Positions 5,844-41,968 of a stretch of 64,000 nucleotides of DNA are shown one piece after another. This stretch comes from Octopus vulgaris. Its lineage: Eukaryota. The DNA lies in the NCBI GenBank assembly GCA_951406725.2, contig OX597815.1:47802001-47866000 (forward strand). The letters are read 5' to 3'. How positions within the stretch are numbered: position 1 is the first letter of the stretch; each line of letters starts with the position of its first letter. The notes under the pieces were generated by a model that was not told the DNA's origin, made no database searches, and was given only the letters and a program-made list of their open reading frames with translations. The translations under genes were made by a program, and so were the position numbers.

Positions 5844-6098
5844 TTAGTACTTCTAATTTGCATTCTATATATCCATCTTAATGTGAATATACTGTAAAAG
5901 ACACAAACACTGCGGTATTTGTCCTGAGAAGGCATATCATATAGACATATAGTGCTAAAATGCATAAAAACATCATTCGCAGACGAAAAGCGTCTAGTTT
6001 TTTAGCTCTGTATGTCTATACGAGATGCTTTATCAATGTTGTGGTTTCTACAGTATATCCACATTAAGTTGGATGTGCAGAATGCTATTCAGAACTAA
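5844..6098. repeat. Imperfect ~255-bp palindrome (foldback / MITE-like)
   Basis: TCCATCTTAATGTGAATATACTGTA pairs with TACAGTATATCCACATTAAGTTGGA. GCATATCATATAGACATATAGTGCTAAA pairs with TTTAGCTCTGTATGTCTATACGAGATGC. Confidence 0.75.
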
Positions 6099-6289
6099 TC
6101 CTGCTTCCGTCTCTAATAGCAAATTATTACTGCTGATTCACGCTGTGTGACACATAAACAGTATATCGTTTACTTAATGAAGCGTCGTATAAAGTACAAA
6201 TATAAAAATTAGGCTACTCACCACTATGATAGTTTAATTGCCAACTGATGTATGTGGGTGTGCAACGAACAAGAACCCGGGACGTTCTC

Positions 6290-7278
6290 TGGTTCCATTC
6301 CACCCTTCGCTATTAATGTCCAGGCTCGAGTACCTAAACTCTTCTTTGCCCTACTCGAAAAACATTTCTCTAAATCTAACCCCGTTACAAAAGTATTTAA
6401 CCCCCAATCTATAAAATTGTTGTACTCCACCACCACCACCAACAACAACAACATTGCCGGAATAATCCGACATCTTAACAACAAGAAACTCGGAAATCCA
6501 CAACCAGCTAACCCCCACCCTAATATCATAGCTCAACATAATCCCCAGTTCCATACATATCAATCCAGAACACTAATTGACCCCATTACCAACACTAACC
6601 CTCACAACTCTAGCTGTAATTCCACTACTAACACCCGCTCCTTAAATTTACCACTTCGCCCAACTATACCTCATGTAAAAATTAAGAACGATACAGACGA
6701 TACCACCGCACATGATAACTATCACATTATACACCCCCACAACGCCATCCTCAACTTCTTAACAAATACTAATCTTAACGCCACCACTAATAACGAACCT
6801 AACACCGGTTCCTCACTAAACAGCAATCCCTGCACAAATTCATCTGGAACTCTCTCTACACACCTATGCAGCTTCAGACGCCCAACCTCCTGTCCTTTAG
6901 ATAATCACTGTCTCACAAAAAAACATCGTTTAAAAGTGTACAGTATCAGCTGCCAACTGTAACTACTTACATAACGGCTCGTGCAGCACCACCTTCAAAG
7001 CCAGAAGGAGCAACCACTACTCCAGTTTCAAGTCCCAAACAAATTCCAACAGCACATCTCAGCTTATTTATAAACTAAAGAATGATTCAACTCCTAACAC
7101 TCTCAAGTGACCCATAGTCACCCAACCCAAACCACACAGTGGCTATAATAACAAGTGTGATCTCTGCATAGCCGGGGTCTTAGCTCTTATGCAATACACA
7201 GATTGTTTTAATGAAAGCAGCAGTACAATCTTTGCCTGCAAACATCGATCAGTAAATCTATTCTCAAAATACAAATAA
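6290..7278 (+). mobile_element. Neptune-type PLE 3' coding half: linker, Cys domain and GIY-YIG endonuclease (pseudogene)
   Basis: ORF 6252-6962 has PPFAINV...LLEKHFSKSNPVTKVFNPQSIKLLYS and CSFRRPTSCPLDNHCLTK. After a frameshift in the poly-A at ~6917 it reads NIV*KCTV...HNGSCSTTFKARRSNHYSSFK, then KCDLCIA...FACKHRS, ending at TAA ~7278. Confidence 0.88.
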
Positions 7279-7978
7279 CAACATTTCCCCCCACACACCG
7301 CATCTTTTCCCCTAACCTTCTTAAATTTTTCTCCCATATTTACCCCTCACTACAACTATATATTAAACCACCAATACATTCCCTTTAATTCCTTATTGTT
7401 ATTTATATACGTCTCTTTTTGTTTCTCCTTACCATTTATAACCTTTTTCTCTTATTTCATCTGTCTCCCCCTCCACCACCACCACCCACCCCTTCTGTAA
7501 ACTTACAAGTACATACGCCTACATACACCTCTACTAATTCATATCGTAAACATGCTCACCGTACACAACAATATATATTCCTTCATTGATAGTGGTTGTC
7601 GCTACAATTCTTCCCCCATTCTGTCTAGATTTCCACTCTGATACTTGACCACATTTCCTACCTCTTGACCACGAATATTTCCTCACCCTCTTCTCTCCAC
7701 ATTGTCTTTTTTTCAAATACCACTCCCCTTGCTAATCTCTGATTTGGCCAAAATAGCCCTTTTGAATACTACCGGTCAAATGACCTTGCTTAAATTCCTC
7801 ATTCTTCTTACTCACTTATATTTTTATTCCTTTTATTTTTTATTTTTATTCCTAATTTCTTTCTACATTTATATTATCCACTCTTTCTGTGCTGTCCACA
7901 TATTCTGATGGATTCTTCCATGTGTTAACAAGTACCTCCTTGCGACAATGTAAACTTTCATTCAATCAAGATGCCCTT

Positions 7979-8062
7979 GGCCTGACGAGTAGACTGCGGT
8001 ATGAACCTCGCTTGGGTATTTACCACTTCCGAGGTTCCACTCGCAATGAAACATATTTAGCC
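7979..8062 (+). ncRNA. Type-I hammerhead ribozyme motif in the PLE 3' region (slightly degenerate)
   Basis: GGC-CTGACGA-[long stem II incl. GAACCTCG/CGAGGTTC]-GAAA-CATATT-TA-GCC. It lies ~700 nt downstream of the PLE ORF on the same strand. Confidence 0.7.
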
Positions 8063-8296
8063 CGGATCTCATCTACTCCATTCTTTAACTTTTGTATTCT
8101 TATTCGATATCCGGTAGCCCTGATCGCCTATCGGGAAATATAAAGAATTTTATTTCAGTTTATCGTACTTCGATACGAAAAAATCCACAACCTTCCGTCT
8201 CAATAAACCACTATTGCCCTGAAAGCTTTTTTTTTTTTTTTCATATTTACTACGGATTGCTTGACGTTAACTTTCTAAACCTCGATCTTTGGACCT

Positions 8297-8380
<84 letters not shown>

Positions 8381-9239
8381 GGATGACCACTATGTGGACA
8401 ACCCTTATGCTAGAGGTAGATCCGCTATGGTCTTACCACTAAGAAATGTTCTCAAGAATAATTTAGCAAACACCAGAACGTAATCGAGCAAGACAAAAGA
8501 AAAAGCAACAAAAATGTGGATTATTCACATACATGTTTCACTATTAACATTTTTACTTACGCAATTGTCCGTAGATCTTCGGTGTGACCGTCCAAACAAA
8601 TATAATTTGCAGAACTATATACTAGGACATCCGCATAAAGTTAGATCTGTATATGGTTCTGCCTATTACACCCGTGGTTACTATTCAAATGTCTTCGTTT
8701 TGGCGCGCTAAATTACCGGAATAATACTGCAGAAAATAATTAAATTTAAATTAATACGTTCTCTAACTGACAAAGGCCACTGCAGTAAATTATTTCTCCG
8801 CACATTAAAAGCATAGAAGGAATGCGTTTACATTCTTGCGTGTTTTTTTTTTTTATCAAATGCTTAATACGATTTTTCAAAAATGGTTTTTTAATCAATG
8901 AAAATTGTAAGCGTAACTATATGAAAAATCATTAGCGTTGATGAAAATTTACACTGAAAGAGGGAGGGGAACAGGAATACTAAAATTTTATTATCATATA
9001 TTGAAATGACATACTGAGTCTGATATCTGGTAGCAATAATAAACAATTCTGGCCAGGTTTCGAGCGTGTTGAAAATTCCCAGCAAAACAACTTGAGTAGA
9101 TTATACGCTGGAAAGGTTCAATCAGACCTGCACATAATCATATCTAACGCCTAGCCTTAAAATAAAGAATAAATTTTCCCCAAGTATATCAGCCAATTTT
9201 GTGAAATTAATTTTTAACATAGTGATTTCAAATTTTGGC

Positions 9240-9743
9240 AACTGGTACATATTCTCTCGACCCAAAAAGGATGAAAGGCAAAGTCAACCACGGCGAAATT
9301 TGAGCTCAGAACGTTAAGACGGGCGAAATACCTATTTCTTTACTACCCACAAGGGGCTAAACACAGAGGGGACAAACAAGGCTAGACACACGGATTAAGT
9401 CGATTATATCGATCCCAGTGCGTAACTGGTACTTATTCTCTCGACCCCGAAAGGATGAAAGTCAAAGTCGACCTCGGCGGATTTTGAACTCAGAACGTAG
9501 CGGCAGACGAAATACCTATTTCTTTACTACCCACAAGGGACTAAATACAGAGGGGACAAAGACAGACGAACGGATTAAGTCTATTACATCGACCACAGTG
9601 CGTAACTGGTGCTTAATTTATCGACCCCGAAAGGATGAAAGGCAAAGTCGACCTCGACGGAATTTGAACTCAGAACGTAACGGCAGACGAAATACCACAA
9701 AGCATTTCGCTCGGCATGCTAACGTTTCTGCCAGCTCGCCGCC
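9240..9743 (-). mobile_element. tRNA-derived SINE family B, multimeric copy (~2.7 tandem ~183-bp units)
   Basis: Head GGCGGCGAGCTGGCAGAAACGTTAGCA and B-box GAGTTCAAATTCC. The unit GAAAGGATGAAAGGCAAAGTCGACCTCGGCGG occurs three times. Confidence 0.9.
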
Positions 9744-15434: not shown

Positions 15435-15921
15435 GGATCTTTTCGGTTTGAACGGCAGTTTTTTCTAGCGGTGTCATATGAAATTGTCACCCATAATTAT
15501 GACCCTAGTATCGATCTATTGCCTTTCAATCTATTACAGGGTTAGGGTTAGAGTTAGGGTTAGTTAGGGTTAGTTAGGGTTAGTTAGGGTTAGTTAGGGT
15601 TAGGGTTAGGGTTAGGGTTAGGGGTGGGGGAAGGGTATCTTTTTTTCTTCACAAATGTAAATAAATCCAATCTGTTTCTTAAACGAGGGACATTTTCATA
15701 CGGCACAGAATGTTTTCACCTCAATACATGTCATTGATTGGTTGAAATTGCAGAAATTGAAGAAGAAAAAACAACAAATATCTTACAAACTATAGAATTT
15801 TCTCAATAAAGCCAAGAGAAAAAGATGTTTTATAAACGCATTCTACCAGTATACGAAGTTTAAAAGTGCTTAGTTACGCGGAAATTATTTTTTTAAACTG
15901 CCGTTCAAACCGAAAAGATCC
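15435..15921. mobile_element. MITE with GGATC termini, 27-bp TIRs, 8-bp TSD and an internal (TTAGGG)n tract (Merlin-like)
   Basis: TIRs are GGATCTTTTCGGTTTGAACGGCAGTTT and AAACTGCCGTTCAAACCGAAAAGATCC. TSD GTTTCCAA at 15427-15434 and 15922-15929. Telomeric repeats at ~15538-15622. Confidence 0.92.
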
Positions 15922-25871: not shown

Positions 25872-25977
25872 TAACCCTAACCCTAACCCTAACCCTAACC
25901 CTAACCCTAACCCTAACCCTAACCCTAACCCTAACTAACCCTAACCCTAACCCTAACCCTAACCCTAACCCTAACCC

Positions 25978-26018
<41 letters not shown>

Positions 26019-26460
26019 CCCTAACCCTAACCCTAACACTAACCCTAACCCTAACCCTAACTAACCCTAACCCTAACCCTAACCCCTAACCCTAACCCTA
26101 ACCCTAACCCTAACCCTAACCCTAACCCCTAACCCTAACCCTAACCCTAACCCTAACCCTAACCCTAACCCTAACCCTAACCCTAACCCTAACCCTAACC
26201 CTAACCCTAACCCTAACCCTAACCCTAACCCTAACCCTAAACCTAACCCTAACCCTAACCCTAACCCTAACCCCTAACCCTAACCCTAACCCTAACCCTA
26301 ACCCTAACCCTAACCCTAACCCTAACCCTAACCCTAACCCTAACCCTAACCCTAACCCTAACCCTAACCCTAACCCTAACCCTAACCCTAACCCTAACCC
26401 TAACCCTAACCATAACCCTAACCCTAACCCTAACCCTAACCCTAACCCTAACCCTGACCC
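25872..26460 (-). repeat. Interstitial telomeric repeat array (TTAGGG)n, ~580 bp
   Basis: (CCCTAA)n on the + strand with occasional CTAACTAA, CCCCTAA and CCTAAA variants. Unique sequence on both sides. Confidence 0.98.
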
Positions 26461-26617
26461 TACATCATTGTAAACCAAGAACATCAGAAGATAAGTCGTT
26501 AACAGCAATATGAAAGATGTTACTCCTCGGCTCTGAAACCCATCATTATAAAAACACCACCAGCTATACACCTCTCGTTATATTGAAATACACCATTAGC
26601 TATAACTCATTTTAAAA

Positions 26618-28935: not shown

Positions 28936-29464
28936 CACACAAAAGTATCATGGAAGAAACGTGTCAGATTGAAGTGTAAAACAAAGTTTTATATTCGTTT
29001 CTATAAAGCAAGTTTTTTCTATAAAGATGAACGACTGTAAATGAAAATATGCTATCAAATGTAAACAGAAGAATATATGTGAATTAGGTAAAGTGAGAAC
29101 ACAGACATACTCAGAAATATGTTTGTGTGTATGTGTGTATAAATATAAACACACCCAATTTTGTAAATATATTCACGCATGCACAAATATATGCCTACAT
29201 ATGCACAGAAATATACATGCATATATACATACTTGCACACACGCGAACACACACATATTTCACACACGCATTAATTTAAAAGTTAAAGCATTTTTCTTTT
29301 CGAAATTTGAATTCTTTTCATCATTTTGTATTAATACCAAGAAATTTGATAGCAGTTAAATTACAATTATTGTATGTAAGCCATATTTCCTTACATAACC
29401 CATTGTTGCAAAAGAATATGTTGAAGTTACCCGTTATGTGAATGGTAACACTCTAGTTTGAATC

Positions 29465-29884
29465 GGCGGCGAGCTGGCAGAAACGTTAGCACGCCGGGCG
29501 AAATGCTTAGCAGTATTTCGTCTGCTGTCATGTTCTGAGTTCAAATTCCGCCGAAGTCGACTTTGCCTTTCGTCCTTTCGGGGGCAATTAAATAAGTACC
29601 AGTTACGCACTGGGGGTGATTATAATCGACTTAATCCATTTGTCTGTCCTTGTTTGTCCTCTCTGTGTTTATCCCCTTGTGGGTAGTAAAGAAATAGGTA
29701 TTTCGTCTGCCGTTACGTTCTGAGTTCAAATTCCGCTGAGGTCGACTTTGCCTTTCATCCTTTCGGGGGTCGATTAAATAAGTACCAGTTACGCACTGGT
29801 GTCGATACAATCGACTTAATCCGTTTGTCTGTCCTTGTTTGTCCCCTCTGTGTTTAGCCCTTTGTGGGTAGTAAAGAAATAGGT
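29465..29884 (+). mobile_element. SINE family B, dimeric copy with TSD
   Basis: Head GGCGGCGAGCTGGCAG and two ~185-bp units. GGTAACACTCTAGTTT is repeated at ~29444 and ~29882. Confidence 0.93.
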
Positions 29885-30291
29885 AACACTCTAGTTTTAA
29901 TATATTTTAAACTCCTAAAACAAAACTAAATAAAAGCTAAGAACAATTTTTTTCCCCAAAAAGTTTATACTACAGCATTTTGCAACTTGGTAAAAAGTAG
30001 ATTCTAAAGAAATACCAATGGGAACTCTGAAACGAAAGAAAATAATAACCTCTAAAGCATCAGTAGAAGAATTAAATTATGCTTGTCAAAAAGAAGTGAA
30101 GTAAAATCAAGGGTGAAACAGAAAGTAATGCAAATAAGAATTGCATTACTTTCTGACTCAGCTTCGTATGAGTCGTCCACATAGAGGCAAAAGAAACCTA
30201 ATCGCATTTACATTTTCGAGAAGTATCATGAGTGCACTTCAAGTATCCTCGTAGCTCAGGCCCAAGATTAACTTAACGCCATCATGGCAAA

Positions 30292-38443: not shown

Positions 38444-38511
<68 letters not shown>

Positions 38512-38642
38512 TTATTTATTTAAACACATAAGAGATGGCTATAATAGGACATCTGACTCACTAGAAAGAGCAGTTAAACTCCAAACCACTAATAGTTGTA
38601 ATTCTGAAATTGAAAGAGAAATAAAAACGTTTACCCTATCTT

Positions 38643-38728
38643 TCCTGGACTATGCATAGTTTCGGCAATCTTTGTAAATAAAATAAAATTATTTTATTTT
38701 ACAATTGGCGTTGCCATCTTCAGCAGGA
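38643..38728 (-). ncRNA. Fully intact type-I hammerhead ribozyme
   Basis: TCCTG-CTGAAGA-T-GGCAA[AT-rich hairpin]TTGCC-GAAA-CTA TGCA TAG-TC-CAGGA. All three stems pair perfectly and the triplet is GUC. Predicted cut between 38648 and 38647. Confidence 0.92.
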
Positions 38729-38988
38729 CGCCAAGGCTAGCATATAGGCACGAGGCGATAAGGACCATACCTCGAGTCTATATGCTATAACTTTTCAAAA
38801 TCCACCACGCTCGCGCGGTTTTTCAGCAGTAAATATAACTGACGATTTAATTTCAAAATTAGCCAAAAAATCCTTCTGGCGGAGAATTTTTCTAGAATTT
38901 CCTAGAATTTTGTTTTGCTACCCTAAAATTTATTAATATATATATATACGAAAGAAGGTTTGAAAATGCAATTTAAAAGATGTTTATT

Positions 38989-39031
38989 TACTTAACCGGT
39001 TTCACTCTTTGGTAAAAGATTGTCAAAAGTA
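38989..39031 (-). ncRNA. Degenerate hammerhead motif
   Basis: TACTT-TTGACAA-TCTTT TACC AAAGA GT-GAAA-CCGG-TT-AAGTA. Stems are intact but the CUGANGA box is mutated at two positions. Confidence 0.55.
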
Positions 39032-39644
39032 ACATTGAATATTATGGGTTCAAAAAAGTTTTTTACATAATTGTCACATTGAATATTATGAATTCAAAAA
39101 TGTTTTTTTATACATAATTGTCACATTACATGTATAAATATAGTGTTTGGTAACAGAGATATGTTAAGGGCATAAAGAAGTTCAATAGTGTGATGAGAAT
39201 ATTTGGAAAAATTGGCAGAAAAGAATAAAACAAATATATTATTGGAAATTTGGTTGCGTTAATTATTGGTTGTCGCAAATTGTCACATTACATGTATATA
39301 TATACAGTCTTTGGTAGAAAGGACATGTTAAAGACATAAGGAAGTGCAATAGTTTGGTGAGAAAATTTGTAATATTGACAGAAAAAATTAAAATGGATAT
39401 TTTATACATCTCGGAATATTTTGAATTGAAGGCGAGAATTTGTTTTTACTGACCTGTTCGCTTTAGCAGAAAAGTTGAATTGAGAGAAAAAAATGTGTAC
39501 CCAGTTTTGTTTATGGTTCCCCTTCAAGCATCAATGATTTCGGGGTTATCGGGAGGTGAGTATGCGGGTGTGAATAGATGTGTCCGTGTGCCTGCAGTAT
39601 TTGGTCAGACGGCGTCTGTTTGTCACACACATATACACACACAC

Positions 39645-40327: not shown

Positions 40328-41487
40328 GTCGACTGGCAACTATAATAGAAGATATTTGCCCATGGTGCCACACTTAGTGAAAGGAGCAATAGGAAAGTAC
40401 TATTTGTAAACTGTATGAAATTTTAGATGTTTTGTAAATAGAGTTTAGTCAAAGTATTTGTATGTGAAGTTAGAAGGCAACTAAAAGTTTTTATAGACGC
40501 TATTACTCATCATCATAATTACTTCATTTTCTACAACGTTTAAAAGTTATACTGACATTGTGTTTGCAGTCTATTGTGGCTTCATTCTGCTTATCTAACA
40601 GGTTTCGTCTGCTATTAGAATATCTAATGCTTCATATGAGCATAACCAATAATCCTGTCCGTCACCTAGCTATAGTTCAGCAGAACTAATGAAATTTATG
40701 GAACACATATTAATATAATATAATTGTAAATGTGATTGTGTAGTGAATAGTGTTGCTTCGCAACAACGTGGTTTCTTAAAAACTGTCATTAAAAATATAT
40801 ATTAACCATATTAAGTTAACATGGCTGGAACAAGATATTTCGAGTTTTCTTTGTTTTCAGTGCGTCATAAGAAGTAAATGTATTTATTTGTCCACGACAA
40901 ATGATATAAAAAATTTAAAAAACTTTTAGAAAATCCTATTTCGCAAAAGAAAACTGTTAAGAAACGAAAGTAAAGTATCGAACGGCAGAGTGCCGGGCAG
41001 ATATTATAAAGAAGCTAGTGTGACGATGTCACTATTGAAGTTTGATCCACCAATTAATTTAATTAAATTTCTAATCAACGTGAGCAAATCATAGCTATTA
41101 ACTAATCAGGTGTATCGAACGTTAACAGAAAATAATTAAATCGATTAGCAGTAAATACATGAAATTCAATTAATTAGTTTTCTGTAAACTTATGGCCGTC
41201 TTCATTCCATATGACTTTGTCTTAGTTGTGGTAAGGATGTAAAGGCTATTGAACAATCGCATTTGCAGAAGGATTCCTGTAGAGGTGTACCAAAAGTGTT
41301 TGTTACAAGAAATTGTAATTGCGAACACATTTTTCCAGGAAAAACAGCCGCTTTTACAGGTCATTGAGCTTGTCGTGAGATCATGAAGAAAGGCTTGTTG
41401 TAAGTATATAGACATCATTTATTGCTACACCAAAACAGAAGGCGTTCATACAATAAAGGAAGAGTAAATTTTATATGAAACGACGTA

Positions 41488-41866
41488 TATTAAGAGAAAA
41501 CTGGAAAATGTACCTAGACGATTGTTTTATCATCTGGAATGAAACCTATGATAAACTCCTGGATTTCAAATCCACACTGAACAATATAAACTCCAATATT
41601 TAATATACAATGGAATATAGCAAGGAACAGCTCCCATTTCTGGACATTTTGATTACAAAAATATCCAACGACCAAATTACAACTGATATCTACTACAAAC
41701 CAACAAACTCAAAACAGTATCTCCTTCATGACATCCTAAACACACCAAAATAAATATCCAGTTCAATCTAGCTAAAAGGATCTGTACAATTGTATCTGAC
41801 ACAACCACTCGGAAATTTCACCTACAAGACCTCAAGATAACACTCATTGAACGTCAATACCCACTC
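41488..41866 (+). mobile_element. Penelope-like element reverse transcriptase fragment
   Basis: WKMYLDDC, TLNNINSNI*YTMEYSKEQLPFLDILI, TTDIYYKPTNSKQYL, HPKHTKINIQFNLAKRICTIVSD and LIERQYP are typical PLE RT/thumb motifs. Confidence 0.9.
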
Positions 41867-41968
41867 GCACAGTCCTGGATGACAGTTCTGAAAGCCAAAG
41901 CGAAAGAACGCCCCAAGCGAATACCATTACAAAATTTTTGGGGAATGCATTCAACGTATCTCAGCTCC

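Follow-up and report, generated by a model that had tools for sequence, protein, structure and literature searches.

Many animal genomes contain hammerheads of the design described here by the thousand. In metazoan Penelope-like elements (PLEs), these motifs have an extra base between positions 9 and 10.1, a G10.1-C11.1 pair, a palindromic 15.2-16.2 region, a helix II of more than 4 bp, and a helix I of 4-5 bp (PMC4209133). Most of them are single motifs of truncated PLEs with low activity in vitro (PMC4209133). For PLEs of the Hydra clade, most rows in File S2 of PMC8557442 contain the same 8-nt core as the locus analyzed here, together with a palindromic helix III of 3-4 bp, and positions computed from that file place the motif roughly 30-200 nt from the element 3' end. 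The insertion preference of these elements is (TA)n, and their entries include Hydra-1_Obim from Octopus bimaculoides (PMC8557442); PLE hammerheads in (TA)n, one of them from Octopus, are already published. In Poseidon elements, the ORF begins at stem II and the ribozyme is protein-dependent (PMC11167929).

PLEs constitute 6.83% of the Octopus vulgaris assembly according to the supplement of PMC13282606, and ribozymes are not mentioned in the main text of that paper. A literature search for hammerheads in octopuses and cephalopods, with most subscription papers and several supplements beyond its reach, yielded no paper on the family described below.

Here, a complete type I hammerhead is reported in a repeat of ~415 bp found in the window, i.e., the whole 64-kb stretch of DNA that was analyzed. 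With moderate confidence, we identify this repeat as the likely terminal repeat (pLTR) of a PLE, either 5'-truncated or non-autonomous, whose hammerhead is predicted to be mostly misfolded in this copy. The element is best read as an aged one. Since such hammerheads are widespread and one Octopus PLE case is tabulated, the find alone is ordinary. Its value is modest: the family had no earlier match, and its loop II is more elaborate than usual. In addition, the element provides a test case for monomer cleavage by a metazoan PLE-type hammerhead that has a four-pair helix III and possibly a pseudoknot, a question bearing on why PLE-type motifs persist though most of them cut poorly in vitro.

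Architecture of the Hammerhead Motif

The motif was located at 38643..38728 of the minus strand by sequence, descriptor search, and pairing check. Read along this strand, it includes stem I of 5 bp (38728-38724 paired with 38647-38643), the core CUGAAGA (38723-38717) plus an extra U at 38716 (together 38716..38723), stem II of 5 bp starting with G10.1-C11.1 (38715-38711 paired with 38668-38664), and the segment 38648..38663, which is composed of GAA (38663-38661), the palindromic helix III, and C17 (38648). Every required base was found in the core, namely C3-U4-G5-A6-N7-G8-A9, G12-A13-A14, A15.1-U16.1, and H17, and in the pairing check all three helices could be formed with Watson-Crick pairs only, stem I being open. 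Thus, the hammerhead motif is genuine, with all core bases in place. The first-pass annotation had already described a type I hammerhead with an intact core and three intact helices, and this description is borne out by the sequence, the pairing check, and the sole descriptor match. The predicted cut lies between 38648 and 38647 of the minus strand, and the cut coordinates proposed earlier (38648/38647) agree with the position of C17.

Helix III is formed by A15.1-U16.1 plus three Watson-Crick pairs and is closed by a 4-nt loop. The corresponding stretch, 38660-38649, is a perfect 12-nt palindrome, for which a self-duplex energy of -15.9 kcal/mol was predicted, vs. 0.0 for the hairpin alone; dimeric folding through this palindrome, as suggested in the annotation, is therefore permitted. 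The extra U lies between A9 and G10.1, and A9-U-G forms an AUG, the frame of which stops after 7 codons. The position of AUG at the start of stem II, as well as the preference for AT-rich targets, is shared with the Poseidon PAc hammerhead (PMC11167929). In contrast, Poseidon PAc has a full ORF starting from this AUG, and no helix III is described for it.

The type I descriptor, which permitted a loop II of up to about 80 nt, had a single match in the 64-kb window. In 200 dinucleotide-shuffled (block-shuffled) windows, the same descriptor produced 12 loose matches and one equally strict match. No match to the Rfam hammerhead model was found at the gathering score across the 64 kb, and a local Rfam search up to E=10 retrieved six weak non-hammerhead matches and no hammerhead. 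The missing match is probably due to the 42-nt loop II, and an Rfam match is not a defining feature of the type I hammerhead class. It nonetheless counts in favor of an alternative explanation, according to which the motif is a look-alike, the core bases being enclosed by chance in DNA hairpins that belong to a Helitron-type repeat or a non-autonomous DNA transposon. The completeness of the core and the single strict match among the shuffled windows speak against such a look-alike, which we consider very unlikely.

Stem II with its loop occupies 38664..38715 of the minus strand in the constrained fold. Loop II has 42 nt, including 6 unpaired nucleotides (38710-38705), an AU-rich hairpin, and 3 unpaired nucleotides (38671-38669). 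The hairpin (38672..38704, minus strand; 33 nt) was predicted to form 14 bp with one bulge and a 4-nt loop, its sequence is assembled from 5-nt A/T units, and its folding z-score is -4.0. The first-pass annotation described this part as an AT-only extension of stem II. The hairpin is real, as indicated by its z-score; it is neither AT-only nor a continuous extension, as it contains one G and one C (forming one G-C pair) and one bulge, and a 6x3 internal loop lies between it and stem II. No literature on an AU hairpin in hammerhead loop II was found within the reach of our search, from which most subscription papers and several supplements were excluded. The bases of the canonical contact between the loops of stems I and II are not recognizable in this hammerhead.

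All the PLE-hammerhead traits tested were present: the extra nucleotide at 9/10.1, the G10.1-C11.1 pair, and the palindromic helix III. These traits, as well as the type I topology, the short stem I, the length of helix III (3-4 bp), the location near the 3' end, and the (TA)n flanks, resemble those of hammerheads from the Hydra-clade and other C-terminal-EN PLEs (PMC4209133, PMC8557442). Unlike the Hydra-clade hammerheads, the motif has a 4-nt loop on helix III, and its loop II of 42 nt with an AU hairpin of its own contrasts with the 3-10 nt in the Hydra-clade rows of PMC8557442; loops of about 30 nt are given there for two Selaginella PLE-X1. The element also differs from the Hydra-clade PLEs by having no adjoining ORF, and no PLE ORF adjoins it within the window. 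Its sequence is distinct from that of Hydra-1_Obim (PMC8557442), and none of five motifs of the element was truly matched in the file of PLE consensus sequences from the same paper, in which line breaks may mask matches.

The Repeat Unit and Its Related Copies

The hammerhead sits mid-way in a dispersed non-coding repeat of ~415 bp (38522..38937, minus strand), the approximate edges of which were drawn from contig cover and are (TA)n-rich on both sides. Thus, the motif is one copy in a dispersed repeat and not the free-standing RNA for which it had been taken in the annotation. On the 3' side of the element, an (AC)n/(TA)n microsatellite is found at 38444..38521 (strand not assigned), and a shorter (TA)n tract is located at 38930-38948. 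A hairpin with 18-bp arms (38738-38755/38770-38787, 89%) lies directly 5' of the hammerhead, at 38738..38787 of the minus strand. The repeat is multi-copy, with approximate boundaries, a microsatellite insertion site, and a hammerhead near its 3' end, the cut site being 126 nt from the 3' end of the element. The GC content of the unit is 35%. The unit has no ORF beyond the 7 codons from AUG, and no ORF was found upstream either.

Parts of 38540-38940 were found in 20 of the 24 sequencing runs listed, none of which contained half of its words. Four of these runs (X1, X2, X3, and X14, with three species labels) were aligned to 38525-39030 at 80% likeness; X1, X2, and X3 are DNA or unlabelled runs. 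No run listed as containing the sequence is labelled RNA; X14 may be an RNA run, but this is a guess, and it does not serve as evidence of expression. Contigs carry no information on strand, ends, or level. The aligned contigs numbered 1632, 616, 1708, and 136 per run, including those of a second, very deep repeat starting from ~38936. Contig cover was continuous across 38525-38880 in all four runs and nearly nil at 38882-38898. One contig with a depth of 13 runs from 38937 to 38525 through a TA run, i.e., head to tail. In three other single contigs, the left part of the unit is joined to 38898-38937. These data suggest that the unit is about 415 bp long and lies between (TA)n tracts. The three joining contigs do not include the hammerhead, an arrangement that, like the presence of several palindromes inside the unit, could be expected if the motif were a look-alike enclosed by DNA hairpins. 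On the other hand, terminal inverted repeats, which such a transposon might have, were rejected, since 79 of 1000 shuffles equalled the score of the arm alignment.

Cover was maximal toward the 3' end of the minus-strand RNA. In X1, the depth, which is not copy number, was 131,000-291,000 at 38542-38626 vs. 6,000-8,500 at 38712-38762. This 3'-weighted depth fits 3'-anchored copies with 5' truncation, as in PLEs; against this argument, depth also falls with divergence from the window copy.

A second alternative is that the element is a solitary monomer of a non-LTR retrozyme, in which tandem units of ~415-440 bp are transcribed, cut at every hammerhead, circularized, and reinserted by PLE enzymes. 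The unit is indeed non-coding, falls within 150-450 bp, and has a low GC content and a type I hammerhead. Metazoan non-LTR retrozymes are likewise non-coding, a few hundred bp long, and below 50% GC, with one type I hammerhead per unit and a strongly self-paired predicted fold (PMC7229834, 10.64898/2026.07.22.740005), so both the size and the GC content observed here are inside the range reported in PMC7229834. A mussel retrozyme family is, like this element, without canonical loop-loop bases; solo monomers are common, and derivation of retrozymes from pLTRs has been proposed (10.64898/2026.07.22.740005). The whole unit has a folding z-score of -3.8 (100 shuffles) with 68% of its nucleotides paired, vs. 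a mean z-score of -0.5 in 14 control windows taken from 86 candidates. This strong fold and the head-to-tail contig fit a retrozyme equally. However, one of the 14 control windows folded as strongly (z-score -4.85), the head-to-tail joint comes from a single contig of depth 13, and, unlike in retrozymes, the unit is present here as a single copy, with no tandem copy in the 64-kb window. The very uneven depth along the unit and the extra nucleotide, a PLE-type trait, also argue against a retrozyme, and we regard this origin as possible but rather unlikely.

Several further candidate features of the unit were considered. A 28-nt direct repeat at the unit ends (75%) is low-complexity and does not represent a target-site duplication. 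No tRNA gene and no match to general A and B box patterns were found upstream of the hammerhead, so a Pol III promoter or tRNA origin was rejected; in this respect, the element differs from a Schistosome-type SINE with a hammerhead, which has a tRNA-derived Pol III promoter. Introns are known from the terminal repeats of PLEs. A GT donor upstream of stem I was discarded, as the base at 38769 is a different one in nearly all the related depth. Just downstream of stem I, a 31-nt segment (38634-38604, minus strand) consists of GT, a polypyrimidine tract, and AG; the acceptor looks strong, and the span is short for an intron.

Variation among the related copies is unphased and was taken from the rows listed, which were 40 of 87 for substitutions and 12 of 22 for indels, and from 32 of 4132 pieces. 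The drop in depth at 38673-38705 carries no information, since this segment was skipped as a repeat in the contig alignment. The substitutions listed include none in 38642-38718 (outside the skipped segment), 10 in 38560-38641, and 26 in 38719-38842. The sole core change among them affects the free position 7, and this sparing of the core is a further argument against a chance look-alike. In each run, one contig among the pieces listed (records 5, 14, 19, and 30) spans the AU hairpin with a net length 5 nt shorter, so that the hairpin recurs in related copies in a form about 5 nt shorter. Judged from matching depths, these contigs are without the extra U and therefore without the AUG. Because of these contigs, the AU hairpin is not private to the locus, and the extra U is optional.

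At 38729, the base differs from that in the window copy in 90-98% of the depth (X1, 5767 of 6295; X2, 388 of 395; X3, 1228 of 1364). Stem I would be longer with the common base; the window copy carries the minority base both here and at 38769. In the upstream hairpin, the partners 38740 and 38785 have changes from G-C to A-T at similar depths (1657/1911, 184/179, and 1011/1144 in three runs and 41/30 in X14). Changes listed at 38748, 38750, and 38775 would mend mismatches of this hairpin; other listed changes, at 38747, 38748, and 38785, would not keep its pairing. The overall pattern, with a spared core and hairpin-preserving changes, is suggestive only.

Predicted Folding in Context and the Competing Helix

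For the bare 86 nt, the minimum-energy fold is not the hammerhead, which lies 1 kcal/mol above it; this is another point in favor of the look-alike explanation. The share of the hammerhead in the ensemble was 4.3e-2 for the bare core, 1.2e-5 for 38600-38780, and 3.7e-7 for the whole unit. When flanks are included, the 5' flank of stem I (38728..38734, minus strand), complementary to loop II/stem II (38705-38711), is predicted to form a 7-bp helix (38734-38728 : 38705-38711) that competes with the hammerhead in this copy and costs stem I and stem II one base each. Its pair probabilities range from 0.52 to 0.73 in 38600-38780 and from 0.71 to 0.99 when the whole unit is folded. In silico replacement of the base at 38729 by the majority base abolished the competing helix (0.09 or less) and raised the hammerhead share to 1.2e-3 in 38600-38780 and to 2.7e-4 in the unit, i.e., 100- to 700-fold. 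Among 27 constructs folded, a hammerhead share of 2.5-5% was reached by the top native ones, whose ends are at 38632 or 38643 (about 3% for 38731-38632 and 38790-38632 of the minus strand), and the construct 38600-38780, which had been proposed for a cleavage assay, is among the worse-folding. Since the ViennaRNA model omits pseudoknots, Mg2+, and tertiary contacts, the misfolding figures only rank constructs.

According to these predictions, most of the RNA from this copy would adopt an inactive fold, and given the predicted misfolding in its native surroundings, its cutting would probably be weak or absent. The annotation had claimed that the motif would cut any minus-strand transcript crossing it. 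This claim is unsupported: the competing helix dominates the longer predicted folds, and published metazoan PLE-type hammerheads are weak in vitro (PMC4209133) or protein-dependent (PMC11167929). Published dimers were mostly silent as well, with 1 of 9 cleaved (10.64898/2026.07.22.740005). Cleavage of a short construct at 10 mM Mg2+ would still be somewhat more to be expected than its failure, while efficient cutting of a host transcript at this locus is unlikely.

The outer 5 bp of the competing helix (38734-38730/38709-38705) could be compatible with stems I and II in the form of a pseudoknot. The probability of a match of at least 5 bp between the flank of stem I and loop II by chance is 0.0065, calculated post hoc. 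Such a contact, in which the stem I flank and loop II might be joined by 5 Watson-Crick pairs, resembles those of natural pseudoknotted hammerheads, and a pseudoknot is predicted to be employed by about 40% of natural hammerheads (PMC3088659). Unlike the pseudoknots described in that paper, the contact is only predicted and extends here into the competing helix.

These folding data also bear on the possibility that the motif is a domesticated ribozyme that trims or destabilizes a host minus-strand transcript at this locus. Its core is intact, and activity as a monomer is possible because its helix III exceeds the 1-2 bp that metazoan motifs typically have; the pseudoknot between stem I and loop II could stabilize it further, pseudoknots being common (PMC3088659). 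Nevertheless, the minority bases of this copy weaken stem I and the upstream hairpin, the copy is predicted to misfold, no host gene was found across the locus, and none of the contigs listed spans the locus together with its flanks. Domestication is therefore extremely unlikely. A more elaborate proposal would be a young non-autonomous cephalopod hammerhead family with circles of ~420 nt and monomer cleavage, in which the pseudoknot would replace the loop-loop contact beside a length-variable AU hairpin and the extended helix would act as an off-switch. We judge it improbable.

For a PLE terminal repeat, the preferred reading, the following course of events may be envisaged. The reverse transcriptase/endonuclease of a PLE would have used the element RNA as template, starting at its 3' end, and inserted the copy at a (TA)n site. 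Precursor transcripts of the parent element would be cut by the hammerhead at the equivalent of 38648/38647, possibly with the aid of a PLE protein or of pairing between two palindromic helix III strands when transcripts are in tandem. After insertion, the copy may have drifted, with the minority base at 38729 shortening stem I and strengthening the competing helix.

Surroundings of the Repeat and Unrelated Matches

The window is AT-rich (30-42% GC per 2 kb), with many microsatellites and a (TAACCC)n array, and no ORF above 236 aa was found in its 64 kb; it is non-coding animal DNA. The strongly folding control segment is located at 28981-29396 of the minus strand; it has a GC content of 28%, and its z-score of -4.85, calculated with 12 shuffles, is as strong as that of the hammerhead unit.

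A decayed RT-like remnant with stops and frameshifts was observed at 41300-41950 of the plus strand, where it is cut off near 41950 by another repeat. We take it to resemble the C-terminal half of a Penelope-type RT; Pfam gave no relevant match for this remnant (~41.3-41.95 kb). It is not linked to the hammerhead unit, being 2.6 kb away, on the other strand, and separated by other repeats.

In a metagenome scan, the hammerhead core motif was found at 0 loci. Matches to a flank motif at 6 metagenome loci were attributed to chance because none of them extends beyond 25 nt. In viral contigs, 43 loci matched the core pattern, and a loose descriptor recognized type I stems in 25 of them; none of the 43 aligns to the element, and they were rejected as unrelated. 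In these contigs (L007-L049), the matches are near locus position 501; the 25 of 43 have stems I and III, and most have a 32-nt span from the core to GAAAC. They probably represent a family of type I hammerheads from phages that has no relation to the element.

Other repeats were observed in the window. The second very deep repeat begins at the (TA)n after the hammerhead unit (38936-39030) and continues to about 39400, with a depth of up to 1.3 million in X3; it is followed by a 44-bp tandem pair (39032-39127) and a diverged duplication of ~127 bp (39116-39242/39278-39405). Interstitial telomere-like arrays are represented by about 98 TAACCC copies at 25872-26462 and by a shorter degenerate GGGTTA tract at 15538-15636. 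Finally, related units of 180-185 bp, presumably an octopus SINE-like repeat, form short tandem arrays on opposite strands at 9240-9696 and 29513-29885.
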